Positions 1-62,114 of a stretch of DNA of 64,000 bases are shown piece by piece. The stretch is taken from assembly GCA_014360805.1 (NCBI GenBank), contig JACIWU010000003.1, positions 5,020 through 69,019 of the forward strand, given 5' to 3'. Within the stretch, counting starts at the first letter, position 1. Each line of letters opens with the position of its first letter. The translations under genes and the position numbers were made by a program. This DNA comes from Chloroflexota bacterium (GTDB taxonomy: Bacteria; Chloroflexota; Anaerolineae; DTLA01). The notes beneath the pieces are model-generated. The model saw nothing but the letters and a program-made list of their open reading frames with translations, was not told where the DNA came from and searched no databases.

Positions 1-1191
1 CTTGCGCAGGCGCTTGCGTAGTTCCTCCGCCAGCGCCGGCACCACCTGGAACAGGTCGCCCACGATGCCGTAGTTGGCCACCTTGAAGATGGGCGCCTCG
101 GGGTCTTTGTTGATGGCCACGATGATCTTGGACGTGCCCATTCCGGCCAGGTGCTGGATGGCGCCGGAGATGCCGCACGCGATGTACAGGTCGGGGCGGA
201 CGGTGCGGCCGGTCTGGCCCACCTGGTGCGCGTAGGGAATCCAGCCGGCGTCCACGGCCGCGCGCGAGGAGCCGACGGCCCCGCCGAGCACCTCGGCCAA
301 CTCGCGGAGCGGCTTGAACCCCTCCGGCCCGCGCACGCCCCGTCCGCCCGACACGATGATCTTGGCATCGGCCAGGTTGACCTCGCCCTCCTCCACGATG
401 AAGTCCACCACCTTGGCGGCGATCTGGTCTTCGGTCATCACCGGCGGGACTTTCACAATCTGGCCCTGGCGGCTGGAATCCGGCTCGGGCATCTCAAACA
501 CGCGATGGCGCACCGTGGCCATCTGCGGGCGGTAGTTGGGGCAGATGATGGTCGCCATGATGTTGCCGCCGAAGGCCGGGCGGGTCTGGCGCAGGAGTTT
601 CGTCTCCGGGTCAATGTCCAGCCCCGTGCAGTCCGCCGTCAGGCCGGTGTGGACTTCGGTGGCCACGGCGCCGGCCAAATCTCGGCCACGGGCGCTGGCC
701 CCCAGCAGGAAGATTTCCGGCTTGTACTGCCGCACCAGGTGCACCAGTTGCTTGGCGTAGGGCGCGGTACGGTACACGCCCAGCGACGGGTCGTCCACCA
801 GGAAGACGCGGTCTGCGCCGTAGTAAATGGCCTGCTGCGCGATGCCCTCCACGTTGTGGCCCAGGACGCAGGCCGTGAGAGTGGTGCCCAGGCTGTCGGC
901 GATCTTGCGACCCTGGCCCATCATCTCCCAGGAGATGCTGCACGCCTCGCCTCGGAACTGCTCCACCCAGACCCAGACGCCCTGGTACGCGCTGATGTCC
1001 TCTTCGCCCTTGCCCCGCTCGGGCAGGCTCAACGCCTCCACGGGGCAGACCTCCAGGCACGCGCCGCAGGCGGTGCACTTGTCGTCCACCGCCGCCTTGT
1101 CGTTCTCCATGCGCAGCGCGCCGAAGGGACAGGCCGCCACGCACGCCCCGCAGCCAATGCACGCTTCGGTGTCAATGATCAAGAGCGCCAT
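1..1191 (-). CDS. etfA: Electron transfer flavoprotein alpha subunit (EtfA) with an N-terminal 2x[4Fe-4S] ferredoxin domain. The C-terminus lies beyond the window start.
   Basis: My minus-strand translation from the ATG at 1191 gives [25 protein letters not shown]...[15 protein letters not shown], which is two CxxCxxCxxxCP motifs. An Etf-alpha FAD-binding fold follows. This ORF is absent from the track because it runs off the window edge. It sits directly downstream of etfB. Confidence 0.8.
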
Positions 1192-1200
1192 GGCAGCCTC

Positions 1201-2001
1201 CTATATCACTTTCTCTTGAAGCAGCAGGTCGGCCAGTTTCGCGGCCTGCTCTTGGGGCGATTCGCCCTCAATCATCACGATTTGCCCGCTGCGGGGCGGC
1301 GGGTTGAACACGCGCACCACCTGCGTCGGCGAGCCTTTCAGCCCCAGCAGGTCCGGCTTGGCATCGGGCAGGTCCGCTGCCGTCCAGACGGGAATCTCCG
1401 CCCGCGTTGCCCGTCGGATGCCCATGATGGTGGGGTAGCGCGGCTGGTTGATGTCCTTGACGACCGTCAGCAGGGCGGGCAGGCGCGTCTCCACCACCTC
1501 GCGGCCCTCCTCCAGAAGCCGCTCTACCTTGATTCGCTTCGCCTGGAAGTCAATCTCCTGAATCTTGAAGACATACGTGAGTTGCTCAATGTCCAGTTGG
1601 CGGGCGATGCCCGGGCCGACCTGGCCGGTGTCGCCGTCAATGGCCTGCTTGCCGCACAGGATCACATCAAAGTCGCCGATCTTGCGGATGGCATTGGCCA
1701 GGGTGTAGGCGGTGGCCCAGGTGTCCGAGCCGGCGAAGGCGCGATCGCTGAGAAGGATGGCCTCGTCCGCGCCCATGGCGATGGCCTCCTTCAGCGCCTC
1801 TTTGGCCTGCGGCGGGCCCATGGAGATGACCGTTACCTTGCCCCCGAATTTCTCGCGCAGGCGCAGGGCCTCCTCAATGGCATAGGTATCAAAGGGGTTC
1901 ACGATGCTGGGGACGCCCTCGCGGATGAGGGTCCCCGTCTCCGGATTCACCTTGACATCCGTCGTGTCAGGCACCTGTTTGATGCAGACAATGGCGTGCA
2001 C
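1201..2001 (-). CDS. etfB: Electron transfer flavoprotein beta subunit (EtfB)
   Basis: The 266-aa ORF starts MHAIVCIKQVPDTTDVKVNPETG and contains DTWATAYTLA and VILCGKQAIDGDTGQVGP, which are typical EtfB motifs. Confidence 0.9.
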   Translation of the reverse strand: MHAIVCIKQVPDTTDVKVNPETGTLIREGVPSIVNPFDTYAIEEALRLREKFGGKVTVISMGPPQAKEALKEAIAMGADEAILLSDRAFAGSDTWATAYTLANAIRKIGDFDVILCGKQAIDGDTGQVGPGIARQLDIEQLTYVFKIQEIDFQAKRIKVERLLEEGREVVETRLPALLTVVKDINQPRYPTIMGIRRATRAEIPVWTAADLPDAKPDLLGLKGSPTQVVRVFNPPPRSGQIVMIEGESPQEQAAKLADLLLQEKVI

Positions 2002-2136
2002 GTTGACCTCCTCTGCTGATGATGAACTGCTTGCCGAAGCATTTAGCCATCAGCCTTTAGCCGTCAGCCATCAGCACACCCCGCTGACCGCTGTCGGCTG
2101 ATCGCTGATTGCTGATTGCTGTCGGCTGACCGCTCC

Positions 2137-3357
2137 TTACGCTTCCCGCTGCCACTCCTCGGGGTCGTAGGCGGGCAGTTCGCACCGAAGCGGCTTATCG
2201 CTGCGGTATCCCAGGGCGTACTGCGCCTGCATGAGTTGCTGAATCTCCTTGGAGCCTTCGTAGATGACCGCACCCTTGGAGTTGCGCAGATACCGTTCTA
2301 CATCGTACTCGTCGGAATAGCCGTAGGCTCCGTGGACTTCCACGGCGTCGTCGGCGCACTCAAAGGACGACTGCGTCGCGAACCACTTGGCCAGGCCCGT
2401 CTCGCGGGTGTTGCGGATGCCCTGGTTCTTGAGCCAGCCTGCGCGCAGGTACAGCAGGCGCGCCGCCTCGTACTTCAGCACCATGTTGGCGATCATCTGC
2501 TGGACGAGTTGGTGCTGGCCGATGGGGACGCCGAAGGTCTGGCGCTCGTTGGCGTACTTCACGGATGCCTCTAGGCAGGCGCGGATGAGGCCCGTTGCCC
2601 CCGCCGCCACCGTGTAGCGGCCGTTGTCCAGGCACGACATGGCGATCTTGAACCCCTCGCCCTCCAGCCCCAGCATGTTCTCGGCGGGCACGGGGACGTC
2701 GGTCATGGAGATGAAGCCGGTGTTGCCCGCGCGGACGCCCAGTTTGCCGTGGATGGTGCCGGTCTCCAGGCCCGGCCAGCCGCGCTCCACGATGAACGCC
2801 GACATGCCGCTGTGGTCGCGCGCCTTCTTCTTCTCCATGTCCGTCCACGCGAAGATGAGGAAGTGGTCGGCCACGTCCGCCAGCGAAATCCACATCTTCT
2901 CGCCGTTGAGAATCCAGTGGTCGCCGTCGCGGCGGGCGGTGGACTGGATGCCCACCACATCGGAACCTGCTGCCGGCTCCGTGAGGCCGTAGGTGGCGAT
3001 CTTCTGCCCCATGGCCTGCGGGACCAGGTACTTCTGCTTCTGCTCCTCCGTGCCCCACTGGAGCAGGCCCAGGCTATTCAGGCCGACGTGCACCGACATG
3101 ATCACCCGCGCCGAGGTATCTACTCGCTCCAGTTCCTCGCACGTCAGGCCCAGGGAGATGTAGTCCATCCCCGCGCCACCATAGCGCACCGGGATGCAGA
3201 TGCCGAGGATGCCCTGCGCGGCCATCTTGGGCAGGATGCTGCGGTCAAAGGTGTGCTTGCGGTCGTTCTCCTTGACCGTGGGCGCGATCTCGCGTTCGGC
3301 GAACTCGCGCACCATCTTCTGCACCATGAGGTGCTCTTCCGACAGGGTAAAATCCAT
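2137..3357 (-). CDS. Acyl-CoA dehydrogenase (butyryl-CoA dehydrogenase-like)
   Basis: I place the start at the internal MDFTLSEEH, which is preceded by a GGAGG ribosome-binding site. ACAD hallmarks are [10 protein letters not shown], the catalytic [10 protein letters not shown] region and [15 protein letters not shown]. Confidence 0.85.
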
Positions 3358-3514
3358 GTCCCCCTCCTCGCTAGTCTTTCGGCGCCCCGGTCGGCCCGGA
3401 AAACGAAAGGCGAAGCCGTTGCCGACAGGGAACGCCACAACCTTCCTGTCGGCGCACATGCTTCGCCCGGATTGGACTGCGCCTTCGCACGTCTGAGACC
3501 TCCGTGGGCTCCGA

Positions 3515-3560
3515 CTCTTCTTGCGCCCATTATATCACGATGCGCAAAAGGCCACAAGCC
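3515..3560 (-). promoter_or_regulatory. Putative extended -10 promoter (TTGTGG-17-TGATATAAT) for the acd-etfBA operon
   Basis: The reverse complement of gcgcccattatatcac is GTGATATAATGGGCGC. The same GTGATATAATGGG core recurs at 18196. This would imply a 5' UTR of about 160 nt. Confidence 0.35.
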
Positions 3561-3605
3561 AGGCCCGCCGGAGGGGATGGTTACGGGCCAATCGGACCCG
3601 CGGAA

Positions 3606-5603
3606 TCAAGCGGGTTGGGCCACCTCCACACTCGCGAGGCTGTAGGGGCTGACCGGCGCGCCTGTCTCCCGCGCCCGCAGCCAGCGCAACATCATCGCGT
3701 CGCCGCTGGCCCCGAAGCGGTGCGGGTCGTAGCGGGCCAGGCCCAGCGCGGCGCGCTTGGCGTCTATGTGCGCTAGCGACCGCGCGACAATCTCTTCGGG
3801 ATCGCGCACGAATTCCAACTTGCCGCCGACGCGCTGCTCCCACCCCTGGCTGATGAACTCGGTTACGACGGGGCTGGCCTCCACAGGGTTGTCGCCTCCG
3901 AACAGCGTGTACACACCCGAAGCGACCAAGTATGCCCCGATGGACACCGCTTTCTCGCTCATCCATTCGGGCGCGATGCCCACGCCGGGGATGTCGCTGA
4001 TGTCTTCGCCCAGCCCGCCCTCGGTCGCCATCTGCGACAACACCGTGAGGATGCGCGAATTGTCCACGCACGACCCCATGTGGAGCACGGGCGGGATTCC
4101 CAGCGCCTCGCAGACCTCACGTAGCCCCGCGCCAACCTCATTGAACGCCTGTTCCGGCGACAGCAGCCCGTACTTCGCCGCCGAAATCGCCCCGCATCCG
4201 GTTTGCACCACCAGCACGTCATTGCGGATGAACTCGCGGACGATGTACTCGTGCGCCGCATCATGCGCGCTGGCGCGGGGGTTGTTGCACCCCGCCACGC
4301 CCGCCACACCCCGAATGCGGCCCTGCACGATCGCCTCGTTGAGCGGGCGAAACGACCCCCGATACACGCCGCCCATCATATAGTTCAGGTACTCATGGGA
4401 GAACCCGGCCACCAGGTTGCTCTTGAACTGCGGAATGCGGGTCTCGCCGCGATTGGGGTAGTTGTCAATCGCCATGCGCACCAGGTCTTTGGCGATGGCC
4501 AAGGCGCGCCGCTCGTCCATCTCCACGTGGAGCGCGCCGTGGATTTTCACCTTGGGCGAGGTGGTTACGAGTTTGGTGTGGAACCGCTGGGACAGCGGGG
4601 CCAGCGCCTCCATGATGCATTGCACATCCACCACCATCATCTCCACCGCGCCGGTGAGGATGGCAAGTTCCTGGCTGAGGAAGTTGCCCGCCGTGCCCAC
4701 GCCCTGCCGCATGAGAACCTCGTTGGCCGTGCAGCAGATGCCCGTCAGGTTGATACCCGTCGCGCCCTTGGATTGGGCGTAGGCGATGAGTTCGGGATCC
4801 TGGGATGCCGCGACGATCATCTCCGACAGCGTCGGCTCGTGGCCGTGGACAACGATGTTGACGGTGTCCTTGCCCAGGATGCCCAGGTTGGCCTGGGATT
4901 GCAAAGGCGCGGGCGTGCCGAACAGGATGTCGGTGATGTCGGTGGCCAGCATGGAGCCGCTCCAGCCGTCGGCCAGGGCGCAGCGCAGGCCGGCCATGAG
5001 GATGTGCTCGTGGTCCTGGTCGTCGCCGATGTGGGTGCGGTGGAGCAAATCCACCACCTCGCGGTCAATGCCGCGTGGCGCGATGCCCAGATTGCGCCAG
5101 ATTTCCTGGCGCGGCTTGGGGGCGCGGCGCAGGTAGGCGGCCTCCTTGCGTTGCGACGTGAACTGCTCCATGGCCTTGAGCGCCACGTCGCGGGCCACCT
5201 CCATCGTGCCTCGCTTCTCGGTGGCCACGCCCAAGAAACGCGCCACCTCGCGCAGTTTTCGCTCGTCGCGGATTCGGTAGTCGGGCGCTTCGCCTTCGGC
5301 GGCGGCCAGCAGGGTGAACACCAGGTCGCGCCCGTGATCGGAGTGGGCCGCTGCGCCTACCGCGATCATGCGGGCGAAGTTGCGTGAGGTAACGGTCTCT
5401 ATCGTGGCCCCGCAGATGCCCGTCTGGCCGGGCTTCACCAGGCGGCACGGGCCCATGTGGCAATGCTTGCAGCACGCGCCGATGTGCCCGATGGGGCAGG
5501 GCTTCATCGCCTCGGCGCGGCTGAATGCCGTGGAGACGCCCTCCTGCTCGGCGTACTCCAGCAGGGTACACACCGCAGGGTCAATACTCTTTGTCGTTGC
5601 CAT
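3606..5603 (-). CDS. cooS: Anaerobic Ni-dependent carbon monoxide dehydrogenase catalytic subunit (CooS-type)
   Basis: The N-terminal stretch EQEGVSTAFSRAEAMKPCPIGHIGACCKHCHMGPCRL carries the C-x7-CC-x2-C-x4-C pattern of CooS clusters D and B. The HGHEP and GCNNP motifs of the C-cluster region are also present. I chose MATTKS as the start because it follows a GGAGAGGAGAG ribosome-binding site. Confidence 0.8.
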   Translation of the reverse strand: MATTKSIDPAVCTLLEYAEQEGVSTAFSRAEAMKPCPIGHIGACCKHCHMGPCRLVKPGQTGICGATIETVTSRNFARMIAVGAAAHSDHGRDLVFTLLAAAEGEAPDYRIRDERKLREVARFLGVATEKRGTMEVARDVALKAMEQFTSQRKEAAYLRRAPKPRQEIWRNLGIAPRGIDREVVDLLHRTHIGDDQDHEHILMAGLRCALADGWSGSMLATDITDILFGTPAPLQSQANLGILGKDTVNIVVHGHEPTLSEMIVAASQDPELIAYAQSKGATGINLTGICCTANEVLMRQGVGTAGNFLSQELAILTGAVEMMVVDVQCIMEALAPLSQRFHTKLVTTSPKVKIHGALHVEMDERRALAIAKDLVRMAIDNYPNRGETRIPQFKSNLVAGFSHEYLNYMMGGVYRGSFRPLNEAIVQGRIRGVAGVAGCNNPRASAHDAAHEYIVREFIRNDVLVVQTGCGAISAAKYGLLSPEQAFNEVGAGLREVCEALGIPPVLHMGSCVDNSRILTVLSQMATEGGLGEDISDIPGVGIAPEWMSEKAVSIGAYLVASGVYTLFGGDNPVEASPVVTEFISQGWEQRVGGKLEFVRDPEEIVARSLAHIDAKRAALGLARYDPHRFGASGDAMMLRWLRARETGAPVSPYSLASVEVAQPA

Positions 5604-5635
5604 TGGCTCTCCTCTCCGTTGCTGTGCGGTCGCGC

Positions 5636-5887
5636 TCACTCGGGCTTGCCGATACGCACGCGCCAGATGTCCGGCCCCTGCTCCAGGTACTCCCAGGTGA
5701 ACTGGCCTGGCCGCTCGTACAGAAAGGCGTAGTGGAGCGGCTTGGGGTCGTGATCGTTCACCAAAACGAACGCCTCGCCGGGTCGCAGGCCGTCAAACGT
5801 GGCGTCAATCAGCGGGTGGCGCTCTGGTGGTGGCACCGCGCGGATGTCCAGTTCGCTGGTGATGAATGGGCGCGTTCTCTGCTCCAT
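5636..5887 (-). CDS. DUF2249-family small protein
   Basis: The 83-aa ORF contains PPPERHPLI...FVLVNDHDPKPL...WEYLEQGPDIWRVRI, a pattern typical of DUF2249, which is often found near hemerythrin and NO-stress genes. Confidence 0.65.
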   Translation of the reverse strand: MEQRTRPFITSELDIRAVPPPERHPLIDATFDGLRPGEAFVLVNDHDPKPLHYAFLYERPGQFTWEYLEQGPDIWRVRIGKPE

Positions 5888-5905
5888 AGACTCCGCCCTC
5901 CCGGA

Positions 5906-6460
5906 CTACTGCAGGTATATTCCGCTCAGCCGGTCCAGCATGTGGTGATACTCCTCATGCTTGCCCGGGCCGATGCGCTCCATCTCCACGCGATCAAACC
6001 CTTCCAGCAGGCAGGCCTGCTGCTCGTCCGAGAGGTGCATGTCGGCGATGACGTACAGGATGTTGTCTTCCTTGTCAATGTGCTGGGTGAGCAGGCCGAT
6101 ATAGTTGGAAGCGTTCTGCGCGAAGCGGCGTGCCGCCGCGGGGTCGCCGGCTTTGTACGCGGGCAGCGCGTCGGCCATCGCCCGCACGTAGGAGCGCCCC
6201 TGGTCATGCTCGGCCAGCATCACCGCGATGGGGCCGCCCTCCTTGGGGACGCCTGCCTTCTCCATCTCCCCGAACAGCAGGTCTTCCTCCTTGCCGTGAT
6301 GGCAGCGGTCGGCGAAGGTGCGGATGAAGTCCACCATCTGCTCCATGTGCTCCGGCGGAACCGACTCCCCCACCTGGAGTTTGTCGGCAATCCTGCCCAG
6401 GATGCGCAGCCCCACCTTGATGCCCTGATGCTCCTCTTTGAGAACCTCCGTCGGTCTCAT
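5906..6460 (-). CDS. Hemerythrin-like (HHE cation-binding) domain protein
   Basis: It contains paired His/Glu motifs (EEHQGIK, HHGKEEDLLF, EHDQGRSY, HIDKEDNILY). I placed the start at MRPTEV after a GGAGG ribosome-binding site. The track ORF begins at an upstream TTG. Confidence 0.7.
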   Translation of the reverse strand: MRPTEVLKEEHQGIKVGLRILGRIADKLQVGESVPPEHMEQMVDFIRTFADRCHHGKEEDLLFGEMEKAGVPKEGGPIAVMLAEHDQGRSYVRAMADALPAYKAGDPAAARRFAQNASNYIGLLTQHIDKEDNILYVIADMHLSDEQQACLLEGFDRVEMERIGPGKHEEYHHMLDRLSGIYLQ

Positions 6461-6570
6461 CTTCGCGCCTCCGATTTGCAACGGGCCGATGCCCGATTGT
6501 CAGGTTTCTTGTACATCCAGTATAAACCAGGGGCGCGCTCCTGTATGTGACTTTGGTCGCGTGGGCGCAA

Positions 6571-6675
6571 GAACCGTGCGGCGCACTTCCGAGGTGCGCC
6601 GCACGGTTCGCGCTCTGGAATGCTGAAGCGTGGCGTTGGCATTTGGAATGCTGAAGCGTGGCTTCAGCATTCCAA
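6571..6675. repeat. REP-like palindromic element (16-bp arms GAACCGTGCGGCGCAC/GTGCGCCGCACGGTTC) followed by a duplicated TGGAATGCTGAAGCGTGGC and a second 13-bp-arm hairpin
   Basis: I verified both perfect inverted repeats by reverse-complementing them. They lie in the 210-bp gap between the oxidase subunit I stop and the hemerythrin gene. Confidence 0.7.
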
Positions 6676-6690
6676 GTCTTCGCGGTTGGG

Positions 6691-8337
6691 CTACGCCTCC
6701 GCCGGAGCCAAAGCCGGTTTGCGCTCCAGCCACCGCTCCGGCACCACCAGGCTCAGCACGTTCTTCCACCCCAGCGTGGCGATGATGTTGATGAGGAAGG
6801 CGACAAAGCCCACTGCAATGAGGATGCCGCCGATGACGGCCAGAATCTCGTTCGTCTGGTACTGGCTGCCTTCGGGGTACAGCGTTCGGCGCAACATGCC
6901 CCTCGCCCCCGCCATGCCCATCACGTAGGCCATCCCTACCGAGCCGATCATCCACAGCCAGAAGTGGGCGTCCACGAGGCGTTTGCTCTTGATCTCCAGG
7001 TTCGTCAGCATGGGGATCAGCGCGTACACCACGGCGAACAAGAGCATTGCCAGTCCGGTCAGCAGGAAGGTATGCGCGTGGAGCGACACGACCCACTGGG
7101 TGTTGTGGAACACCACGTTCAGCCCCACGTTGGCCTGGATGAGGCCCGCCGCGCCGCCCATGATGAACCCGAACATGGAGCCGAGCACGAACTTCAGCGG
7201 CGGCGAGAACTTCACGGGCCGCGCCAGCCAGATGGTCATCAGCGTGGCGAACAGCGTCAGGCCCATGGTGAAAAACTCGCCCCACGTGATGAACTGCCCC
7301 GAAATGAGCCGCATCCACAGCGGCTGGCTCTGATCGCCCAGCAGGTGGTGGCTCCATACGCCCAGGGACACGAGCAAGTCCACCATGATGACCGTCTTCA
7401 CCACGTTCTCGCCGAACAGTTTGCGGCCCACCAGCAGCGGCACCAGCAGGTACCACACCCCCGCCGTGTACATGAGCACGTTGCCGTCGGCCACCATGTC
7501 CAGCCCCCACCAGAACCAGTTCTTGTAGATGAGCGGGTCAATGGCGGCGGGGTTCAGCGGCGACTTCACAAGCGCCGCGATGCCATAGACCAAAATCAAC
7601 GCCCCCGCCGTGAGGAGCACGATGGCGTTGATGACGGTGTCAATGGAGCCGCGCGCCACCGCCACGATGAACACGGGCAGCCCGTTGTAGTCCAGGTTGG
7701 GCGCGGCCTTGTCCTCTTTGCCCAGGCGCTTCATCAGCCGCGAGATGCCGAACGCCGCCCGCAGAAACGCGCCGAAACTGTACGAGCCTGGGTTGCTCTT
7801 GCTCAGCACGGTGCTGAAGGTGTTGAACGAGAACAGCAGGATGTTGACCATGATGATGGCCGCGCCGACGGTGAAGGCGATGCTCCCGATGAGCGGCACG
7901 CGGTCATAGGACACGGGCAGCGGCCAGTAGAGCGTGTACAGCGAATTGAACAGCCCGAAGAACCCCGCGCCCCAGCAAATCATCACGCCGACAATCTGCG
8001 CCCAGAAGTTGAAGACCAGCAGTTTCTTGTGGCGAACTTCTTTGCCGAGGAGATAAGGAACCAGGAAGTAAAACGCGCCGAACACCAGCATGTAGGCGAA
8101 GCCGTAGATGCCGACGATGGGGTGCGCCGTGAGCATCGCGTAGAACAATTCCGCCGAGGACACCTCGCGCCCCACGGGCCGCAGCGCCATCAGCGCCTCC
8201 TCCATGCCCCGGAGCGCGCCGGGCGCCGCCAGTTGGGTACGCATGAGCATTCCCTCAAACCCCGACAGCGCCAGGAACAGCAGCCCCACCACCGCGAACC
8301 GCAGCATCCACTTCGTTTGCCAAGTGAGTTTCGCCAT
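6691..8337 (-). CDS. Heme-copper oxidase superfamily subunit I, NOR-like and divergent
   Basis: The protein is 548 aa with about 12 TM helices. It has the helix-II TAHPIVG His ligand, the helix-VII WSHHLLG His pair and the helix-X LHAHTF His pair. The helix-VI position reads WFWWGLDMVADG instead of W..GH(P/N).V. It has no N-terminal quinol-binding extension. Confidence 0.8.
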   Translation of the reverse strand: MAKLTWQTKWMLRFAVVGLLFLALSGFEGMLMRTQLAAPGALRGMEEALMALRPVGREVSSAELFYAMLTAHPIVGIYGFAYMLVFGAFYFLVPYLLGKEVRHKKLLVFNFWAQIVGVMICWGAGFFGLFNSLYTLYWPLPVSYDRVPLIGSIAFTVGAAIIMVNILLFSFNTFSTVLSKSNPGSYSFGAFLRAAFGISRLMKRLGKEDKAAPNLDYNGLPVFIVAVARGSIDTVINAIVLLTAGALILVYGIAALVKSPLNPAAIDPLIYKNWFWWGLDMVADGNVLMYTAGVWYLLVPLLVGRKLFGENVVKTVIMVDLLVSLGVWSHHLLGDQSQPLWMRLISGQFITWGEFFTMGLTLFATLMTIWLARPVKFSPPLKFVLGSMFGFIMGGAAGLIQANVGLNVVFHNTQWVVSLHAHTFLLTGLAMLLFAVVYALIPMLTNLEIKSKRLVDAHFWLWMIGSVGMAYVMGMAGARGMLRRTLYPEGSQYQTNEILAVIGGILIAVGFVAFLINIIATLGWKNVLSLVVPERWLERKPALAPAEA

Positions 8338-8349
8338 CTCACACCTCCC

Positions 8350-8772
8350 CTATGGCACTACGCGAATGGCATTCGGGAAGTACATCTCCGAATGGCGCGG
8401 GCCTGAGTATTCGGTGGAACGCACATCGTACACGCCAGGGGTGTCAAACTTCCACGTAATCTTGTTCTCGTAGCCCGGCAGGACCTGCATCTGGAAGACC
8501 ATCGTCCCATCGGGACGGAACACCCCGAAGCCGTAGGTTACGTCCTTGGACGTGGCGACAAACTGCACGAACTCATTGACCTTGACCTGCACGCCGCCCT
8601 GGGGAAACCGAATCTGGTAGTCTTCAAACTCCAGCGGAACGATTCGGTCGGGCGTGGGGCGAGACCACAGGAGCCACCGTTGCCAGGGAACCAAAGGCGA
8701 GAGTGTGATGGCGTTGACGAGCAGGAACACGCCCACGAGGACGAACAACCAGTTCCGTTCCCGTTTGTCCAT
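8350..8772 (-). CDS. Heme-copper oxidase subunit II-like cupredoxin protein, Cys-free with no CuA or heme c site
   Basis: The protein is 140 aa with an N-terminal TM helix. Its C-terminal beta-rich domain ends ...STEYSGPRHSEMYF, which resembles a degenerate CuA loop lacking both Cys. It contains no CxxCH motif. It is immediately upstream of subunit I. Confidence 0.55.
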   Translation of the reverse strand: MDKRERNWLFVLVGVFLLVNAITLSPLVPWQRWLLWSRPTPDRIVPLEFEDYQIRFPQGGVQVKVNEFVQFVATSKDVTYGFGVFRPDGTMVFQMQVLPGYENKITWKFDTPGVYDVRSTEYSGPRHSEMYFPNAIRVVP

Positions 8773-8773
8773 C

Positions 8774-8878
8774 TCAATCTCCTTTCTCCCTCACTTTCCA
8801 GGCGAAGAGCAGCATGAAGAGGATCGCCAGAACCAGGAATGCCGTGTAAGCCCACCAGATGACATCCGTTGCGTACAT
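8774..8878 (-). CDS. 34-aa single-TM peptide, possible accessory oxidase subunit
   Basis: This ORF is not in the track. My translation is MYATDVIWWAYTAFLVLAILFMLLFAWKVREKGD. It is preceded by an AAGGAGGG ribosome-binding site. Its stop overlaps the subunit II start in a TGAGATG arrangement. Confidence 0.45.
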   Translation of the reverse strand: MYATDVIWWAYTAFLVLAILFMLLFAWKVREKGD

Positions 8879-9100
8879 AGCCCCCTCCTTGTGGTTTTTG
8901 CAGCACGCGGGTCTGCGAGGATAAGGCGGAGACTTCCGCCCTCATACGAAAATTCTAGCATCGCTGCAAGGCCACGTCTGTAACTTTTGTCGCAAATCGC
9001 GGCATGGCGCGGCCCGCAATATCCCGCTCCCATGCAGGCGACATGCGGATTGTCGGTAGGTCTTGCAGTAACGCTGTAAGATTTCCTCACAATAGCGCAT

Positions 9101-9130
9101 TAAAATATTGACAGCCGCTCGCAATCCGTG
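9101..9130 (+). promoter_or_regulatory. Sigma70-like promoter of htrA (TTGACA-18-TATAAT) with a leader of about 190 nt
   Basis: The sequence ttgacagccgctcgcaatccgtgctataat is a consensus hexamer pair in an AT-richer island of a GC-rich genome. Confidence 0.5.
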
Positions 9131-9327
9131 CTATAATGTGCGCAGAGATCCTTCAACCCTGGCGCCTCATCTGGTCAACGCACGCGGCACCTCGGCACCG
9201 TTTGGTCGGAGAAAGGCGGGTGCTGTGGAATCCTGTCCTTCGGCAAGCATCTGTCGCACAATCGGATTGTCCCCACCCGCCTCTGCCAACGCGTGGGGAA
9301 ATGCAATGTTCAAGGAGCAGAGCACAA

Positions 9328-10485
9328 ATGAAAGCGCGGTTTGACGTACGCAAGTCCTGGGTCTTTTTCGCGGCGGTGTTGCTCCTTCTCCTGGGCTGCG
9401 GCTTCACAGGAGATGGCACATCCACGTCGCCGAGGGCCACGCCGCAACCCACGGCGCTCCCCGTGGTCGTCGCCACGGCCACGCCGCTCCCCCAGCAGGA
9501 CTACGAGTCGCTGGAACTGGAGGAGCGCCTGCTGGTGAACCTGGTCCAGCGCGTCGGTCCCTCGGTGGTGCACATTCAGATCACGACGGCCACCGGCTCG
9601 GGCTCGGGTTCGGGCTTCTTCTACGACCGCGAAGGGCACATCGTTACGAACAACCACGTGGTGGAAGACGCCGAGACCATTCGGGTTGTGCTGGCCGACG
9701 GGTCCCAGGTCGCGGCCGAGGTCGTGGGCACCGACCCCGACGCGGACCTGGCCGTGATCCGCGTGGACGCGCCGGCCGACCTGATCGTGCCGGCCGAACT
9801 GGGCGACTCCAGCAAGGTTCAGGTGGGCCAGTGGGCCGTCGCCATCGGCAACCCGTTTGGCCTGGAACGCACGGTAACGCGCGGCATCATCAGCGCGCTG
9901 GGGCGGGTCTTCCCGCAGGAGAGCGGGTTCTCCATCGCCAACCTCATCCAGACCGACGCCGCCATCAATCCAGGCAACTCCGGCGGGCCACTGCTGGACT
10001 TGCGGGGCCGCGTCATCGGCGTCAACACCATGATCGTGTCGGAGACCGGCGCGTCGGCGGGGCTGGGGTTTGCCATCCCCGTGAACATCGTCAAGAAGGT
10101 GGCGCCCGCCCTCATCAAAGACGGCTTCTACGCGCACCCGTGGCTGGGCATCCAGGGCTACACCATCACGCCCGAACTGGTGGAGGCTCTGGCCCTGCCC
10201 GTGGAGCGCGGCGCGCTGGTGGGCCAGGTAACGGCCGGCGGCCCTGCCGATAAGGCCGGGCTGCGAGGCGGGCGGCGCACCGTGCGGGTGCCCGGCTACT
10301 TGGAGCCGGTCCAGGCCGGCGGCGACATCATCGTGGGCATAGACGGCAATCGGGTAACCGGCATGGACTCGCTCATCAGTTACCTGGACTTCACCGAGGC
10401 CGGCCAGGTTGTCGTGCTGGATGTGATTCGCGGCACAGAGCGGCTGTCCATTCGGGTTACCCTGGGCCAGCGCCCGCGCAGGTAA
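9328..10485 (+). CDS. htrA: HtrA/DegP-family serine protease with a PDZ domain, lipoprotein signal peptide
   Basis: The start follows an AAGGAG ribosome-binding site. The signal peptide has an LLGC lipobox. The trypsin-fold motifs GNSGGPL and HVVEDAE are present, followed by a C-terminal PDZ domain. Confidence 0.9.
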   Translation: MKARFDVRKSWVFFAAVLLLLLGCGFTGDGTSTSPRATPQPTALPVVVATATPLPQQDYESLELEERLLVNLVQRVGPSVVHIQITTATGSGSGSGFFYDREGHIVTNNHVVEDAETIRVVLADGSQVAAEVVGTDPDADLAVIRVDAPADLIVPAELGDSSKVQVGQWAVAIGNPFGLERTVTRGIISALGRVFPQESGFSIANLIQTDAAINPGNSGGPLLDLRGRVIGVNTMIVSETGASAGLGFAIPVNIVKKVAPALIKDGFYAHPWLGIQGYTITPELVEALALPVERGALVGQVTAGGPADKAGLRGGRRTVRVPGYLEPVQAGGDIIVGIDGNRVTGMDSLISYLDFTEAGQVVVLDVIRGTERLSIRVTLGQRPRR

Positions 10486-10501
10486 CCGTGGGAGGAGATC
10501 C

Positions 10502-10843
10502 GTGACCGGCAATCCTTCGCCGCAGGAACCCTGCTACGTCATCAGTGTGGCGGCAAAGTTGGTGGGTGTTCATCCCCAGACCCTTCGCTACTACGAGAGT
10601 CTGGGGTTGATCAAGCCATGCCGGTCGCCGGGGAACAGGCGGCTGTACTCGCCCCGCGACATTGAACGATTGCGGCAAATCCAGCGTCTTACGGATGAGT
10701 TGGGCGTCAACCTGGCGGGGGTGGAGGCCATCTTGTCGCTCATGGATCAAGTCGCGCAGATGAAAGCGGAGATGGAAGCCCTACAGGCGCGCTTTGAACG
10801 CGAAGTTGCCTTGCTGAAGAGCAAGTTGCAGGGTAGCGAGTAG
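10502..10843 (+). CDS. hspR: MerR-family heat-shock regulator (HspR-like)
   Basis: The ORF has a GTG start after a GGGAGGAG ribosome-binding site. The MerR helix-turn-helix reads CYVISVAAKLVGVHPQTLRYYESLGLIKP. It sits upstream of clpB in the classic HspR arrangement. Confidence 0.8.
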   Translation: MTGNPSPQEPCYVISVAAKLVGVHPQTLRYYESLGLIKPCRSPGNRRLYSPRDIERLRQIQRLTDELGVNLAGVEAILSLMDQVAQMKAEMEALQARFEREVALLKSKLQGSE

Positions 10844-10880
10844 GCGGCAAGAAATCGGATCATGCAAACAGGAGGACAGT

Positions 10881-11972
10881 ATGTTTGACGAAAAGGACGT
10901 TCGCGAACTGGCGGCTTTTCACGCAGATGGAGCCACGGTGTTGAGCCTGTACCTGAGCACAGATCCTTCCCGCCATCTCAAGGACGAAGCGAAGTTGAGC
11001 CTGCGCGGAATGTTGAAGCAGGCGATCGCGCTGGGCGCGGCCCAGTCCGACGCGGACCGCATGGAGCGTTTCGTGGACTTGGAATACGATTGGAAGGCCA
11101 AGGGGTTGGCCATGTTCTCGTGCCAGGAGGAGGGTTTCTGGCGGGCCCTTCCGGTCAGCGTGCCGGTCAGCAACCACGTCTTCGTGGCCGACCGACCGTA
11201 TGTGAAGCCGCTGAGCGACATGCTGGACGAATACGGCAAGTTCGCCGTGGCGCTGGTGGACCAGGAAGGAACCCGCGTGATCCTGTACCATCTCGGCATG
11301 GTGGAAGACACCGCGGGGACATTCGGCACGGAGTTGAAGCGCCACAAGAAGGGCGGCTGGGCGGCCCAGCGGTTGCAGCGCCGCCAGGATGAGAAAGCCC
11401 ACCAGAATCTGAAAGAGGCCGCGTCGCTCGTCAAAGACTTCTGCAACAGGCACCAGTGCAAGCGGCTCATCGTGGGCGGGCAGGACGAGACGGTGTCAAA
11501 GTTTCTGACCATGCTGCCCAAGGCATTGCGCGATAGTGTGATCGGCACCATGTCCATAGACATCACGGCGTCGGAAAGCGAGGCGCTGGAGCGGGCGCAA
11601 GATTTGCTGGAGGAGGCAGAGCGCGCTCGCGAAGCCGAACTCGTCCAGCAGGTGGTTACCGCGGCGACCAAAGGCGGGCCGGGTGCTATCGGCCTGGCCG
11701 ACACGCTGACCGCGCTCCAGGAGGAGCGGGTGCATATCCTCGTGGTGGAAGAGGGCTTCCAGGCCACCGCGTTCCGATGCGACCACTGCGGCTACATCGG
11801 CGCCCAAGATACGGGAAAATGCGTCTATTGCGGAGGCCCCATGGTTCTCATCAAGGACGCGGTGGATGCCATCGTCCGCCGCGCCATCCAGCGGGGCGTG
11901 GAGGTGGAATTCGTGCAGGGGAACGACGCCCTGACGCGCGCAGGCCAGATCGGCGCGCTCTTGCGGTATTAG
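10881..11972 (+). CDS. eRF1/Pelota-like (baeRF1 or host-attachment-family) protein with a C-terminal zinc ribbon
   Basis: The loop ELKRHKKGGWAAQRLQRRQDEKAH closely parallels the eukaryotic eRF1 GGQ loop KKHGRGGQSALRFARLR, with GGQ replaced by GGW. The C-terminus carries CDHCGY...CVYCGG. Confidence 0.55.
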   Translation: MFDEKDVRELAAFHADGATVLSLYLSTDPSRHLKDEAKLSLRGMLKQAIALGAAQSDADRMERFVDLEYDWKAKGLAMFSCQEEGFWRALPVSVPVSNHVFVADRPYVKPLSDMLDEYGKFAVALVDQEGTRVILYHLGMVEDTAGTFGTELKRHKKGGWAAQRLQRRQDEKAHQNLKEAASLVKDFCNRHQCKRLIVGGQDETVSKFLTMLPKALRDSVIGTMSIDITASESEALERAQDLLEEAERAREAELVQQVVTAATKGGPGAIGLADTLTALQEERVHILVVEEGFQATAFRCDHCGYIGAQDTGKCVYCGGPMVLIKDAVDAIVRRAIQRGVEVEFVQGNDALTRAGQIGALLRY

Positions 11973-12015
11973 CCCCTGCACCCAGGGCCGGCACGCGCCG
12001 GCGAGGTGAAGACCT

Positions 12016-36650: not shown

Positions 36651-39600
36651 TTACTCGGCGCGGTCCTCGGTCGCGCCGCGGGCCGACTCCGCCTCACCGT
36701 TCGGCCTGGACCGAGATTCCAGCGTCTTGCGCACTTCCTCCACCAGGTCTGGGATGGAGAAGGGCTTGGTCATGAAGTTCACGGCGCCCAGGGCCAACGC
36801 CCGCTCGCGCTTCATCTTGTCTTCAGAGATACTGGCCGTCATCACGATCACCGGGATGTCGGCGGTGTTCGGATTCCGCTTCAGTTGCTCCAGCACCGAG
36901 TAGCCGTCCAGCCCGGGCATCTTGAGGTCCAGCAGGATGAGGCCGGGGCGCTCCTTTTCGGCCACGGCCAGCACCTGGCGGCCGTCGGACACGGCCCGCG
37001 CCACGAACCCGTTGCGCTCCAGCACCTCGCGCAGCAGTTTCTGCGTGTCCTCGTTATCATCGCAGATGAGCACCAGGTCGTGGGCGAACAGGATGGAGTG
37101 AACCGTGCTGACGAGCCGCTTCTCGTCCACCGGCTTGCCCAGGTAGTCCACCGCCCCCAAGCGGTAGGCCCGGTCGGGGTCGGGGACGATGGACAGAATC
37201 ACCACGGGGATGTCCGTGGTCTCGGGGTTGGACTTCAGGTCGCTGAGCACCTCAAACCCGTCCTTGCCCGGCAGGCGAACGTCCAGCGTGATGAGGTGCG
37301 GTCTCTCGCGCAGGACGAGGTCCATCACCTCGTCGCCCCGCCCGCAAGTGCTCACCTCGTACCCTTCCTCGCGCAGATGCGTGGCCACCAGGTTCGCGAT
37401 GTCGGGCTCGTCTTCCACCACGAGAATCCGCTTGCCCGCGCCAATGGGCTCGGCTTCTTCCGTAACCTCTTCCCGCGGCGGGAGCGGCTGGTCAAACACG
37501 GCGATGGGCATCGTGAAACTGAACTTGGACCCCTTGCCCAGTTCGCTCTTGAGCCAGATGGTGCCGCCGTGCATCTCCACGAACGACTTGACGATGGCCA
37601 GGCCCAGGCCGGTGCCGCCCGTCTCCTGCACCACCGGATGGTCGGCGCGATAGAAGCGGTCAAAGACCTTCTTCTGGTCCTCGGGCGAGATGCCGATGCC
37701 GGTGTCGGCCACGTCTATCTGCACCTTGTCCGACACGCGGCGCGCCGAGACGGTGATCTTGCCGCCCGCGGGCGTGTAGCGGCACGCGTTGTCCACTAGG
37801 TTGGTCAGAATCTGCGTCAGGCGGTCGCGGTCGGCGTACACCGGCGGCAAGGGCGATTTGACCTTGATGGTAACCGTGAGTTGCTTCTCCTCGGCTTGCT
37901 TGCGCAGCGCGGTTACCACGTCCTGGATGACCTTGGCGGCGTCGGTGGGCTGGCGGTCCAAGCGGATGCGTCCGGTCTCAATCCGCGAGATGTCCAGCAG
38001 GTCGTTGACCAGCGTCGCCAGTCGGTCGGCGTTGGACTTGATGACGGTCAGGAACTTGCGCTGGGCATCCGTAATAGGGCCTGCCGCTTGCATGAACAGG
38101 AGGTCGGTGTAGCCCTTGATGGAAGTCATGGGCGTGCGCAATTCGTGGGACACGGTGGAGATGAATTCGTTCTTGACGCGCTCCGCCTCCACTTCCTTGG
38201 AGATGTCGCGGAACAGCGCCACGGTTCCCAGCAATTCGTCGCCCATCATCACCGGCGCCACGCGCACGCTGGCCACCTTGTTGCCCACGGCGAAACGCTC
38301 TTCCATCTGTGGCCGCTGGCGGGACGCGACGCCGACCCAGCGGCTCACGGCGGCCAGCCCGCGGGCGGCCATCTCGGCCCCCGCCGAAAGCGTGGCCGGC
38401 AGGGCATGCACGTTCTCGTTCATCACCACGTTGCGCGGCACGCCCAGGATGCGCTCGGCGGCGTCGTTGAACAGGATGATGCGCCCGTCGGTGTCGGTAA
38501 CCACCACGCCGTCGGCGATGCCTTCCAGAATGGCGCGGGTCTTGGATGCCTCGGTCTGCTGCATCCGCAGCATGTCGCCCAGGCGGTCCGCCTGCTCCTG
38601 GATGAGGCGATACAGTTCGGCGTTGCCGATGGCCGTGGCGATCTGGGTGGCGGCGGCGGTTACCATCTTCAGGTGGGCCTCGCTGAAATAGTCGGGCCTG
38701 GGGTCGGCCAGCGTCAGCACGCCGAGGATGTCCTCGCCCGCCTGGAGCGGCACCGACAGCGCCGAGCGCACCGTCTCTTCGCCCACCGTGGTCAGCCAGC
38801 GCTTGTCCTTGGTTACGTCGGGCACGATGACCGCCTGGCGGTGCTGGAGCACCCATCCGGCCAGCCCAACCCCCGCGCTGAAGGACCGCGACAGCGACGC
38901 GGCCTGGTCCGCCTGGCCCCGCGTCAGCGAGGCGCGGTGCACCAGTTTGCCCGTCGCCTGATCCAGCAGCAGGATGGACCCCTGCCGCATGCCGATGGAC
39001 TCCTTCAGGAGTTGCAGGGCGCGGCTCATCACGCGGTTCAGGTCCAGCGTCTGGCTCAATTCGCGGGCGATGCGGTACAGCGCCTCGGTGCGGTCGCGCT
39101 CAATCGTGAGTTCCTCGTTGGCCTTCGCCAGTTCGCGCGTGCGCTGCTCCACGCGCTCTTCCAGTTCCAGGTTCAGCCGCGTGATCTCTTGGTACAACTG
39201 GGCGTTGCGGATGGCGCGCGAGGCCTGGTTCACCAGGAAGTTCACGAGCGACACTTCCCGATCGGTGAAGTGATGGGGTTCGGTGGAGCCTGCGAACAGC
39301 ACGCCGATGGTTTGTCCTTCCAGTTGCACCGGCACGCCGAGCATGGACTGCACGCCCAGTTTGCGAATCACCGAACTGACGCGGCTATCCTGCGCTACCT
39401 CGTCTATGACGAGCGGCTTGCCCGATCGCAGGATCTCGGCGGTCAACCCGCGCGCCCTGGGCTTGTGCACCTCAATCTGCTGCGCCATCTCCGGCGGGTC
39501 CGACACGACCTTGAAGACCAGTTCATCCTCGGTCTGGCCCTTGATGTACAGCGTAGCAAGTTGCGTGTGGGTCAGCCGCAGCGCGCTCTGGGCGATGAGC

Positions 39601-45428: not shown

Positions 45429-45457
45429 ACCCACCAACCCACGCAGATTCCGGGACG

Positions 45458-59588: not shown

Positions 59589-61136
59589 TTAGGGTTTCTT
59601 TCCTGTTGGGTGGCACAGAACACACTTGTTCTGGATATCGGAGATGCCGCGCGCGCTGTGTACCTGCGTCATGCCGTCCGTGGCGTGGCACGTGTCGCAG
59701 TGGTATGTGGTGAAGTCGTTCTTGGGATGGCACAGCACGCACGTCTTGGCCGCCCCGTCGTGGTCCTGCGGGAACAGGTGCGCGGCCTTCGTCGGGGCTT
59801 CCTCGGCCTTGTGGCACAGCAGGCAGAGCATATTCCCCCAGCCTTCGTGCGTCTCGGGGTACGGCTTGATGCCGCCCGGCGCATGGCACATCAGGCAGTC
59901 CTCGCGCCCCTGCGTTGAGTGCAAGATGGGCAACGGTGTTACGCCAGCCGGCTCGTGGCACGTGGTGCACGTGGACTCGGCCCGTCCGGCGTGAGTCGCC
60001 ACGGGGAACTGCGCGATCTTGCCCTCGCCATGGCAGGCCAGGCAGGCCTCGCGCCCCTCCACGGGGTGCAGGATAGCGGGCGACGGCGCCAGGGAATGGC
60101 ACGCCAGACACGTATCGTTTGTGCGGTCCTTGTGATCGGCGGGCAGAGCCATCGCGCCCTGGAGGCCATGGCAGGAGCGGCAGTCCTCGCGCCCCTGCGT
60201 GGGGTGCGGAATGGCGGAAGCGGCGGCCACCAGCGCCTGGGCCGACTGCGCCCAACCCTGCGGCGTGTGACACAGCGCGCAGTTGTCGTTTCCGAACTCG
60301 TGCGGACGCTTGTGGCAGTCGCTGCACACGCCCGACAGGCCCTTGAAGTTGGGCCAGCGGTGGCACGTGAAGCAGTCCGTTGTGGCATGCTTGCCCACCA
60401 GTTGGATGGGGTGCACCTTGAGCGTCGTCTGCTTCCACGTCTCGGTAGACGTGTGGCAGTCGCTGCAACTCAGGGCCTGCGCCACGTCGTGCGGCCCCAC
60501 ATGGCACGTGTCGCAGTCGGTCAGCCGTGCGCCCAGGTTGCGCTCCTTGTGGCAGTTCAAGCAGACACTCATGGAGCAGGTCGTCTGCCCCGTAACCGGA
60601 TCAAAGCCGTGGCCCACCGCCCCGTGGCAGTCGCTGCAATACACCCCGCAGGAAGACCCCTCCCATGCGGCATTGACCACAGCGCCATGAGGCGTGCGGA
60701 GGTTGTCGCCCGGGATTTCGGCGGGCAAATTGCGATGGCACGTCAGGCAGTCGGTCGGGTGCGACTTGGATAGGTCGGCGATGAGATTTTGATGCGCGGC
60801 GTCCTTGGCCGACCGGTTGGGCGTCCCGCCGTGGCACGTGATGCAACCCAGGCGACCGTGGGGCGTATTCAGCGTGGTCGGGTCAATGTAGGCCGACTTG
60901 GCCGTATCCGGCGACTCGGCCGAAGCCGCCAGCGCCTGGGGATCCGTGTGGCACTTGGTGCACTCGGTAGATACCGGAGCCGCATAGTTCACGAAATACA
61001 GCGTGGGCACGGGCGTTGCCTTCGGAGACAGCGCCTGACCCACCGGCTCCGCCAGGAGTCCGGCGATAACGGCCACTACCACGACCGCCAATGAGAGAGG
61101 AATCAGGTACCACTTGGGCCAATGGGATGGGAACAT
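59589..61136 (-). CDS. Membrane-anchored multiheme c-type cytochrome with about 19 CxxCH motifs
   Basis: It has an N-terminal TM helix. I counted 19 CxxCH motifs in 515 aa, including CTKCH, CITCH, CLTCH, CSDCH (three times) and CLNCH. Confidence 0.9.
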   Translation of the reverse strand: MFPSHWPKWYLIPLSLAVVVVAVIAGLLAEPVGQALSPKATPVPTLYFVNYAAPVSTECTKCHTDPQALAASAESPDTAKSAYIDPTTLNTPHGRLGCITCHGGTPNRSAKDAAHQNLIADLSKSHPTDCLTCHRNLPAEIPGDNLRTPHGAVVNAAWEGSSCGVYCSDCHGAVGHGFDPVTGQTTCSMSVCLNCHKERNLGARLTDCDTCHVGPHDVAQALSCSDCHTSTETWKQTTLKVHPIQLVGKHATTDCFTCHRWPNFKGLSGVCSDCHKRPHEFGNDNCALCHTPQGWAQSAQALVAAASAIPHPTQGREDCRSCHGLQGAMALPADHKDRTNDTCLACHSLAPSPAILHPVEGREACLACHGEGKIAQFPVATHAGRAESTCTTCHEPAGVTPLPILHSTQGREDCLMCHAPGGIKPYPETHEGWGNMLCLLCHKAEEAPTKAAHLFPQDHDGAAKTCVLCHPKNDFTTYHCDTCHATDGMTQVHSARGISDIQNKCVLCHPTGKKP

Positions 61137-61156
61137 AGTCCTTACCTCAATTCGCG

Positions 61157-62113: not shown

Positions 62114-62114
62114 C

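Follow-up and report, generated by a model that had tools for sequence, protein, structure and literature searches.

In the 64 kb stretch of Anaerolineae (Chloroflexota) DNA analysed here, referred to as the window, the gene for a carbon monoxide dehydrogenase that contains nickel (Ni-CODH), CooS, forms an operon with the genes for a hemerythrin-like protein (Hr) and a DUF2249 protein, next to a second operon for a heme-copper enzyme (HCO) that carries the published gNOR signature and is predicted to derive from the B family. The enzymes themselves are recognisable; what is new is their association, which is recurrent, is under selection and comes with a shared cis-element. Ni-CODHs are treated as strictly anaerobic enzymes, and their known partners are acetyl-CoA synthase (ACS), hydrogenases, CooF and flavin oxidoreductases. 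The surveys consulted on the gene neighbourhoods and distribution of CODHs mention no hemerythrin, DUF2249 or heme-copper neighbour (PMC6344411, PMC13056359, PMC13240472), and neither the main text of the paper on gNOR (PMC11214002) nor its preprint mentions CODH. The reading that we favour, with a probability of about one half, is that this CODH is an ACS-independent CO oxidiser that has been recruited into a regulon responding to anoxia or nitrogen oxides (N-oxides), that it is co-regulated with the gNOR-type enzyme, and that it supplies reducing power derived from CO whilst Hr and DUF2249 sense or buffer nitric oxide (NO) or O2, or protect the metal clusters. The locus suggests that CO oxidation in these Chloroflexota may go along with the handling of nitrogen oxides or of trace O2. 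A CODH would in that case have left the Wood-Ljungdahl cluster and become fixed in an operon of the N-oxide/anoxia type, which offers a lead on CO as an electron donor for the handling of NO or trace O2 in the abundant Anaerolineae, on the physiological role of gNOR and on the function of the highly conserved DUF2249/Hr pair.

All genes of the locus lie on the minus strand and are transcribed from high to low coordinates:

8774-8878, minus strand: HCO subunit IIa, 34 aa, with a single transmembrane helix and a ribosome-binding site (RBS) of its own
8350-8772, minus strand: HCO subunit II, 140-aa cupredoxin, weak matches to COX2/CoxB
6691-8337, minus strand: HCO subunit I, 548 aa, COX1 family (PF00115), gNOR-like
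5906-6460, minus strand: Hr, hemerythrin-like HHE di-iron protein, 184 aa, PF01814 at 79 bits, ATG at 6460 behind GGAGG
5636-5887, minus strand: DUF2249 protein, 83 aa, PF10006 at 100.8 bits, DrpA-like, no signal peptide
3606-5603, minus strand: CooS, catalytic subunit of the Ni-CODH, 665 aa if translated from the ATG at 5603

The positions and the strand are those given in an earlier reading of the bare sequence (the original prediction), whose outer limit, 8878, turns out to be the start of the 34-aa subunit IIa open reading frame (ORF). Subunit I and Hr are separated by 230 nt, and the Hr stop and the DUF2249 start by 18 nt. A mechanical call places the CooS ORF at 3606-5639 (GTG at 5639); its likely start is the ATG at 5603, behind GGAGAGGAG and 32 nt after the DUF2249 stop, with the RBS about 20 nt past that stop, as had been noted originally. 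An exact-sequence look-up of CooS with either start returned no record.

Identity and ancestry of CooS and its operon partners

CooS matches the TIGR01702 model at 611.7 bits (cut-off 478) over profile positions 2-621 of 621, and PF03063 is matched too. The cysteine pattern of the B- and D-clusters that had first been noticed is indeed present (C48, C56, C57, C60, C65 and C76), and the C-cluster ligands are also complete: H265, C303, C341, C451, C482 and C524 are the counterparts of H261, C295, C333, C446, C476 and C526 in ChCODH-II, whilst H99 and K563 form the catalytic pair (H93 and K563 in ChCODH-II). All 14 key residues are therefore kept, and none of them varies across 82 relatives. Among solved structures, the closest to CooS are 6ytt (C. 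autoethanogenum CODH/ACS; E = 5e-185), 6t7j, which we take to be the CODH of Thermococcus AM4, and 6b6v (N. vulgaris), with E values of about 1e-185 to 1e-177 and scores of about 600-620 bits. Below these rank CODH-IV, Moorella AcsA, CODH-II and R. rubrum CooS; clade F structures score about 470-527 bits and the clade D enzyme CODH-V 274 bits, the Ni-less CODH-V (7b7q) being far from CooS at E = 1e-80. The enzymes of the three best structures belong to clade E in the current classification, and activity is proven for this clade (PMC13056359). It had been proposed that CooS might be a CODH of non-canonical or unknown function; this does not hold, because all ligands are kept and the protein groups with the active clade E enzymes (AcsA of C. 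autoethanogenum, TcCODH and NvCODH), and CooS is predicted to be a canonical, clade-E-like and catalytically competent Ni-CODH. A function like that of Hcp (hydroxylamine reductase) or CODH-V was considered and rejected, given the full C-cluster set, including C303 (equivalent to C295), and the negligible similarity to Hcp models (21-27 bits against cut-offs above 360).

The ancestry of this enzyme was followed in a set of 80 genome loci with 82 CooS sequences (L-numbers denote loci of relatives). The nearest CooS proteins all come from Chloroflexota metagenome-assembled genomes (MAGs), and their usual context is Fhs, an HMA-domain protein, CooS, ACS, AcsC/D and AcsE; ACS adjoins CooS in 52 of the 82 sequences, and CooC is found some kb downstream in nine loci. 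In a neighbour-joining tree the window CooS falls into a clade with those of L001, L084, L002 and L003 (100% bootstrap). This clade is nested among ACS-adjacent Chloroflexota CODHs, and its sister group, also with 100% bootstrap, consists of ACS-linked CooS proteins from Chloroflexia, the closest ACS-adjacent relatives, which share 74-77% identity with the window protein. On the strength of this sister position, the window CooS is read as a descendant of AcsA that has lost ACS, and nine clade-specific changes at conserved columns set its clade apart from the ACS-linked relatives.

Searches of the window by tblastn with the family's own ACS, AcsC, AcsE, Fhs, CooC, DUF166 and HMA-domain proteins gave nothing better than E = 0.1 (for ACS, only E > 1), and the 64 kb contain no CooC-type P-loop. 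Around the block of CooS and its two partner genes in other loci, no ACS was found in L002 (up to 10 kb on each side) or in L164 and L167 (about 4-6 kb downstream, the upstream side ending at the contig edge); nowhere in the searched sequence is acsB encoded with the CODH, as it is for a bifunctional CODH/ACS. The original prediction had reported CooC, ACS and CooF as missing from the 64 kb, which stands for the first two and fails for the third, as a Fer4_11 protein of the CooF family is encoded at 62115-62789, inside an NrfD/multihaem-cytochrome cluster 56 kb from CooS. Compared with the AcsA of known CODH/ACS systems (6ytt; the Chloroflexota Fhs-HMA-CooS-ACS-AcsCDE clusters), the window enzyme thus has its closest sequences and identical cluster ligands there, but it has no ACS, corrinoid protein, methyltransferase, Fhs or HMA gene nearby and has Hr and DUF2249 upstream.

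The chaining of CooS to hemerythrin and DUF2249 that had been proposed from the window is borne out by the recurrence of this three-gene operon as an intact block in at least four flanking contexts. These have HCO upstream and an acyl-CoA dehydrogenase (ACAD) downstream (window, L001, L084); HCO upstream and DUF6754 downstream (L167); EF-G upstream, with a HEAT-repeat protein and MutY downstream (L002); or DUF998 and FG-GAP genes downstream with a transposase beyond (L164-166). Pairwise synonymous divergence (dS) to the window amounts to 0.36-0.80 across the block genes (0.44-0.56 for CooS), and the ratio of nonsynonymous to synonymous divergence (dN/dS) is 0.06-0.08 for CooS, 0.11-0.14 for Hr and 0.10-0.17 for DUF2249. 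From these low ratios it follows that all three genes have been maintained by selection after the loss of ACS.

By its sequence, Hr is an HHE-domain protein that is distantly RIC-like. It matches YtfE, RIC and DnrN weakly (YtfE at E = 0.017 in the PDB), and with 24.6 bits against NF008221 (cut-off 254) and 20.1 bits against TIGR03652 (cut-off 204.7) it falls outside the RIC/YtfE family as these models delimit it. DUF2249 is unusually conserved, at 60-75% identity across phyla, and the window protein is 74% identical to a DUF2249 protein of Thermus composti that is encoded beside a DrpB-type gene, in a locus that also encodes a Crp protein, a hemerythrin and a protoglobin. The genes of nitrate respiration are modulated by DrpA and DrpB in Thermus (PMC6282519), and in Haloferax DUF2249 genes are induced under denitrification (PMC11218638). 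Widespread members of the Anaerolineales likewise have an order that runs from narGHJI through other genes to Crp-Hr-DUF2249-cupin-Hr. Hr and DUF2249, originally viewed as companions of NO genes, can thus be regarded as companions of N-oxide respiration in general. DrpA and DrpB are the DUF2249 proteins of the Thermus thermophilus nitrate-respiration element (PMC6282519); Thermus DrpA is periplasmic, whereas the window protein has no signal peptide, is not accompanied by DrpB and has a CODH attached.

Two further observations concern the CooS family at large. A 110-aa HMA-domain protein is encoded directly upstream of CooS in 43 of the 80 loci (e.g. L008:9594-9926), which includes most Chloroflexota CODH/ACS clusters; where MxCxxC would be expected it has ‘LYADHH’, which contains His, its slot is filled by DUF2249 in the window, and it may be an undescribed CODH metallochaperone. 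CooS genes without an adjacent ACS, mostly from Dehalococcoidia, are also found in L043, L044, L058, L060, L063, L070, L076 and L077.

The gNOR-like heme-copper enzyme and its links to CooS

In subunit I of the HCO the residues that bind haem (AHP; HAH) are conserved, as is the HH pair, and helix VI has FWWGLDMVADG in place of xWxxGHPxVY. The core of this motif, WWGLDMVADG, is invariant in the 120 nearest subunit I homologues, and its two Asp residues lie four positions apart (i/i+4), as do the CuB His and the cross-link Tyr. The placement of the gap by HMMER at the motif is ambiguous, and neither alignment offers a His or a Tyr. The best solved relatives of subunit II are the CuA domains of T. 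thermophilus ba3; its own CuA site is gone, the positions of ba3 H114, C149 and C153 being occupied by Tyr, Ser and Ser, so that both bridging Cys are missing. The B-family ba3 of T. thermophilus carries a 34-aa subunit IIa, and a gene for a 34-aa subunit IIa was called at the equivalent site in L081 and L083, with the peptide kept in L020/L066. The published features of gNOR are an Asp for the CuB His, no cross-link Tyr, a cupredoxin without CuA and probable dependence on quinol (Murali et al. 2024, PMC11214002), and an Asp at the position of the cross-link Tyr is listed for gNOR in a published table (PMC8756737). The window enzyme agrees with these residue features in each respect (CuB His to Asp, Tyr to Asp, subunit II without CuA), is predicted to be a B-family-derived enzyme of this kind, and the description ‘NOR-like oxidase’ given to it originally was apt. 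Since the cross-link Tyr and one CuB His are gone, the HCO cannot be a normal O2 reductase. Reports of gNOR come chiefly from sulfidic habitats, the original ones being from Sulfurimonas, Sulfurovum and Persephonella (PMC11214002); here a large family from Anaerolineae, likened to gNOR by its signature residues, is represented by 83 loci.

The HCO genes stand upstream of the Hr-DUF2249-CooS block in the window, L001, L084 and L167, and orthologues of Hr (49-64% identity) flank the HCO in 7 of the 17 loci with 5 kb or more of sequence to either side of it. Another CooS clade (L020, L066/L083, L088-L090) lies directly upstream of the IIa-II-I genes, at a distance of about 108 nt, in an array of SRPBCC, DUF59, DUF166, CooS and HCO. 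This clade was sister to the window clade in 0 of 100 bootstraps, and the juxtaposition of CooS and HCO has therefore arisen at least twice; no convergent substitutions common to both orphan CooS clades were found. A CODH has thus come to lie, twice and independently, beside the same uncharacterised gNOR-type enzyme. As far as sequence comparison can tell, the link between CooS and the oxidase is stronger than the original prediction could see, both through this second lineage and through the Crp/Fnr-type box described below. The hemerythrin-like gene beside a NOR-type enzyme, under a Crp/Fnr-family regulator that is predicted here, resembles the pairing of norA with norB.

DUF166 (PF02593) adjoins CooS in 26 of the 80 CooS loci and the gNOR-like HCO in 10 of the 83 HCO loci (e.g. 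L020:7332-8093 and L082:8494-9255). In L020, CooS has DUF166 immediately on one side and the HCO operon on the other, which gives the impression of an insertion into an array like that of L082. In the latter, an Anaerolineae MAG (L082:3399-9255), the HCO operon is preceded by genes for desulfoferrodoxin, DUF554, a Crp-family regulator, a ferredoxin, a hemerythrin, a methyltransferase, a DUF438-hemerythrin-PAS protein and DUF166, an array that, to judge from its gene content, looks like an anaerobe-type island for defence against O2 and NO.

Promoters, hairpins and a shared Crp/Fnr-type box

The regulatory features of the two operons are as follows:

8980-8993, minus strand: Crp/Fnr-type box GCGACAAAAGTTAC upstream of the HCO operon, 22 nt before a -10-like TAGAAT (8952-8957)
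6566-6675, minus strand: two strong stem-loops, one a nested hairpin (6615-6675), the other a perfect stem of 16 bp (6571-6609)
6547-6560, minus strand: Crp/Fnr-type box GCGACCAAAGTCAC in front of the Hr-DUF2249-CooS operon, with 22 nt between it and the -10 TATACT (6519-6524)

Both operons share the box GCGACnAAAGTyAC. A 14-bp inverted repeat that lies 22 nt before the -10 centres near -41.5, which is the geometry of class II CRP/FNR sites, and the shared box is a putative Crp/Fnr class II site centred at about -41.5. The original prediction had called for a search upstream of 8878 for Crp/Fnr-type motifs based on the organism's own sites, and a box lies there, at 8980-8993. Neither the FNR box in its canonical E. 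coli form (TTGATnnnnATCAA) nor the DNR box (TTGACnnnnGTCAA) was found, with up to two mismatches allowed, in the relevant intergenic regions, the counts being near chance, and a scan with sigma-70 and terminator consensus patterns missed both promoters and the hairpins; the variant used by this lineage was found only by phylogenetic footprinting. In five lineages the footprint upstream of Hr shows an invariant GCGAC(C/G)AAAGTCAC, which is followed by 22 nt of variable sequence, by TATACT and by another conserved stretch. The box of the Hr operon is invariant in the window, L001, L002, L084 and L167 and has one change in L164/L166, irrespective of whether HCO lies upstream. Between the -10 and the RBS of the Hr operon, a 26-nt block (6493-6518, minus strand; GATGTACAAGAAACYTGACAAYCGGG) is nearly invariant in the five lineages and may be an operator or an element of the 5' untranslated region.

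Across 2.28 Mb of related loci the strict motif has 10 matches, all of them upstream of Hr-DUF2249-CooS or HCO operons. Orthologous boxes precede the HCO operons of L085 and L086, and in L087 a strict box lies about 24 nt before TATAAT, a distance at which it is not listed by the composite scan. With a relaxed composite pattern (YGAY-N4-RTYA, 21-23 nt, TAnnnT), nine occurrences were observed upstream of HCO operons against 0.24 expected, an enrichment of about 37-fold; the same composite precedes many Hr genes and directly follows Crp-family genes in L082 and L168-171. The shared box would be the first cis-element for a putative Crp/Fnr-type regulon in Chloroflexota.

The region between the two operons (6461-6695) folds at -104 kcal/mol (z = -6.5 against shuffled sequences), and the stem-loops at 6566-6675 are probably a terminator or transcript-end structure; they have no U-tract and were hence not called by the terminator scan. 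The ‘REP-like hairpins’ first described here are therefore real as hairpins and not as REP elements: an arm is repeated three times, only locally, within 6617-6673, and a dispersed REP element was rejected as there are no further copies in the window. The hairpins and the independent promoter between the units support two transcripts, as had been suspected, and the promoter is conserved in L002, where no HCO lies upstream. A scan of positions 1-12000 against Rfam found no known RNA and no NiCo riboswitch.

Possible roles of the locus and its surroundings

Under the favoured reading, a fall in O2 or the appearance of N-oxides would cause an activator of the Crp/Fnr family to bind the shared box, about 41.5 bp upstream of the transcription start, and to switch on both units in this Anaerolineae/Caldilineae-like bacterium. 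CooS would then oxidise CO to CO2 in the cytoplasm and pass low-potential electrons to a soluble acceptor, such as ferredoxin or possibly the di-iron Hr. The RIC-like Hr and the DrpA-like DUF2249 would sense, bind or scavenge NO or O2 and keep the O2- and NO-sensitive clusters of the CODH working, whilst the IIa-II-I membrane enzyme would remove NO with quinol as its predicted reductant. Overall, CO would serve as the electron source for the detoxification or respiration of N-oxides, or of trace O2.

Parts of this scheme recall known systems. The CODH-IV cluster of C. hydrogenoformans contains rubrerythrin-type genes, and thus likewise joins a CODH to a di-iron stress protein, with CO proposed as the reductant for detoxification; CODH-IV is however a clade F enzyme accompanied by rubrerythrin, FeS and flavin oxidoreductase proteins and no heme-copper enzyme, whereas the window CODH is clade-E-like and accompanied by hemerythrin and DUF2249. 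The YtfE (RIC)-Hcp/Hcr system of E. coli also combines a RIC-type di-iron protein with an enzyme of the prismane family (PF03063) under anaerobic or NO control, but Hcp reduces NO at a hybrid Fe-S-O cluster, whereas CooS keeps the full set of Ni C-cluster ligands, and Hr matches YtfE marginally. The monofunctional clade E CODHs (N. vulgaris CooS-CooC, 6b6v; Thermococcus AM4, 6t7j) are stand-alone CO-oxidising Ni-CODHs of the clade that CooS resembles; their operons carry CooC and/or CooF or a regulator, whereas the window operon has none of these. NvCODH is reported to regain activity following exposure to O2 (PMC13056359).

Several points weigh against the favoured reading. No gNOR has yet had its activity demonstrated by biochemical means (PMC11214002), and that CO drives NO reduction is a step which we infer. 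The association itself is patchy, as HCO is not beside the block in L002 and L164-166 and CooS occurs in only 5 of the 83 HCO loci. The box is without the outer TT/AA of the E. coli FNR consensus, and a scan of all but a few small ORFs of the window revealed no Crp/Fnr gene. Neither operon encodes an electron carrier (CooF or ferredoxin) or CooC, so the electron path and Ni insertion depend on genes elsewhere. Direct electron transfer from CooS to the HCO is unlikely because CooS is cytoplasmic and the cupredoxin of subunit II faces outwards. Boxes of this type also precede some ordinary CODH/ACS clusters (L046, L069), and therefore the signal may be general anoxia and not NO specifically, which fits plain anaerobic control of an O2-sensitive enzyme. 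Lastly, the genome may encode ACS elsewhere.

Some of these points would also be explained if CooS were an ordinary, stand-alone anaerobic CO/CO2 enzyme, placed under a general anoxia signal of the FNR type because it is sensitive to O2, with Hr and DUF2249 merely the promoter-proximal genes of the operon that it joined and the HCO adjacent by coincidence or only on account of a global regulator common to both. The patchy adjacency, the small share of HCO loci with CooS, the hairpins and separate promoter that divide the units and the FNR-like boxes before the f2-CooS-ACS clusters of L046 and L069 are all as this explanation would have it, and it keeps a real, if minor, chance of being right. 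It sits poorly with the two phylogenetically separate CooS lineages that adjoin the same HCO family, with a lineage-specific box variant that in 2.28 Mb occurs only at these two promoter types, and with a three-gene block that has stayed intact through several relocations at dN/dS values of no more than 0.17 in all three genes.

It is improbable that CooS is a displaced AcsA which, having been relocated behind an anoxia-responsive promoter, still serves the Wood-Ljungdahl pathway in CO2 reduction and acetyl-CoA synthesis with acsB and acsCDE elsewhere. Its closest relatives at 74-77% identity are ACS-adjacent, the solved structure that it matches best is a CODH from a CODH/ACS complex and the nine clade-specific changes are few; yet no Wood-Ljungdahl gene lies in the window or in the searched flanks of the at least four block contexts, a split of acsA from acsB is unusual in a family with 52 of 82 adjacent, and the clade has kept conserved partners of its own instead.

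A bolder version of the link is a long shot: the CODH and the gNOR-type enzyme could form a pathway of CO-dependent N-oxide reduction in Chloroflexota, in which either CO oxidation energises NO reduction or the C-cluster itself turns over an N-oxide. One candidate for the latter is N2O, which is isoelectronic with CO2 and is what the adjacent NOR would produce; Ni-CODH is reported to reduce it, and in the papers searched nothing relevant to such a reaction turned up. If true, the first possibility would amount to partial denitrification driven by CO, with an ‘anaerobic’ CODH connected to a heme-copper enzyme, and the second to a removal of N2O that is independent of NosZ.

The least probable alternative is a self-contained scavenger, by analogy with the clustering of CODH-IV and rubrerythrin in C. 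hydrogenoformans and with the YtfE-Hcp pathway in E. coli, in which CODH electrons would go straight to Hr, with DUF2249 as adaptor, and Hr would reduce NO, O2 or H2O2: the operon has no conventional redox partner and yet moves as a block, Hr is distantly RIC/YtfE-like and induction of CODH clusters by O2 exposure has been reported (PMC6344411), but the similarity to YtfE is marginal (E = 0.017, and far under the NCBIfam cut-offs), nothing speaks for electron transfer from the CODH D-cluster to hemerythrin, and Hr-DUF2249 pairs are common without any CODH, which points to a more general function in sensing or as accessory proteins.

Contrary to what had been stated, the co-directional run does not end with CooS, since three further genes continue on the minus strand:

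2137-3459, minus strand: ACAD, downstream of CooS
1201-2001, minus strand: EtfB, downstream of ACAD
running off the window start, minus strand: EtfA with an N-terminal 2x[4Fe-4S] ferredoxin domain

A gap of 147 nt with an extended -10 (TGATATAAT) parts CooS from ACAD. Membership of ACAD-EtfBA in the CooS unit was rejected, and the set is treated as a separate unit because it is missing from all other contexts of the CooS operon and has its own promoter-like -10. It is a Bcd/Etf-type set that could be ferredoxin-linked, and it adjoins CooS downstream only in the window species.

The remaining genes of the window are unrelated housekeeping and signalling genes, except for a redox cluster at 59.6-62.8 kb. 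This cluster (59589-62789, minus strand) encodes a multihaem cytochrome c of 515 aa together with a membrane protein of the NrfD type and the Fer4_11 (NrfC/CooF-family) iron-sulfur protein mentioned above, and is a quinone-linked redox module. Amongst the signalling genes, a hybrid histidine kinase of 2928 aa (36651-45437, minus strand) has about 12 GAF domains, PAS and two receiver domains, with a response-regulator gene on either side.

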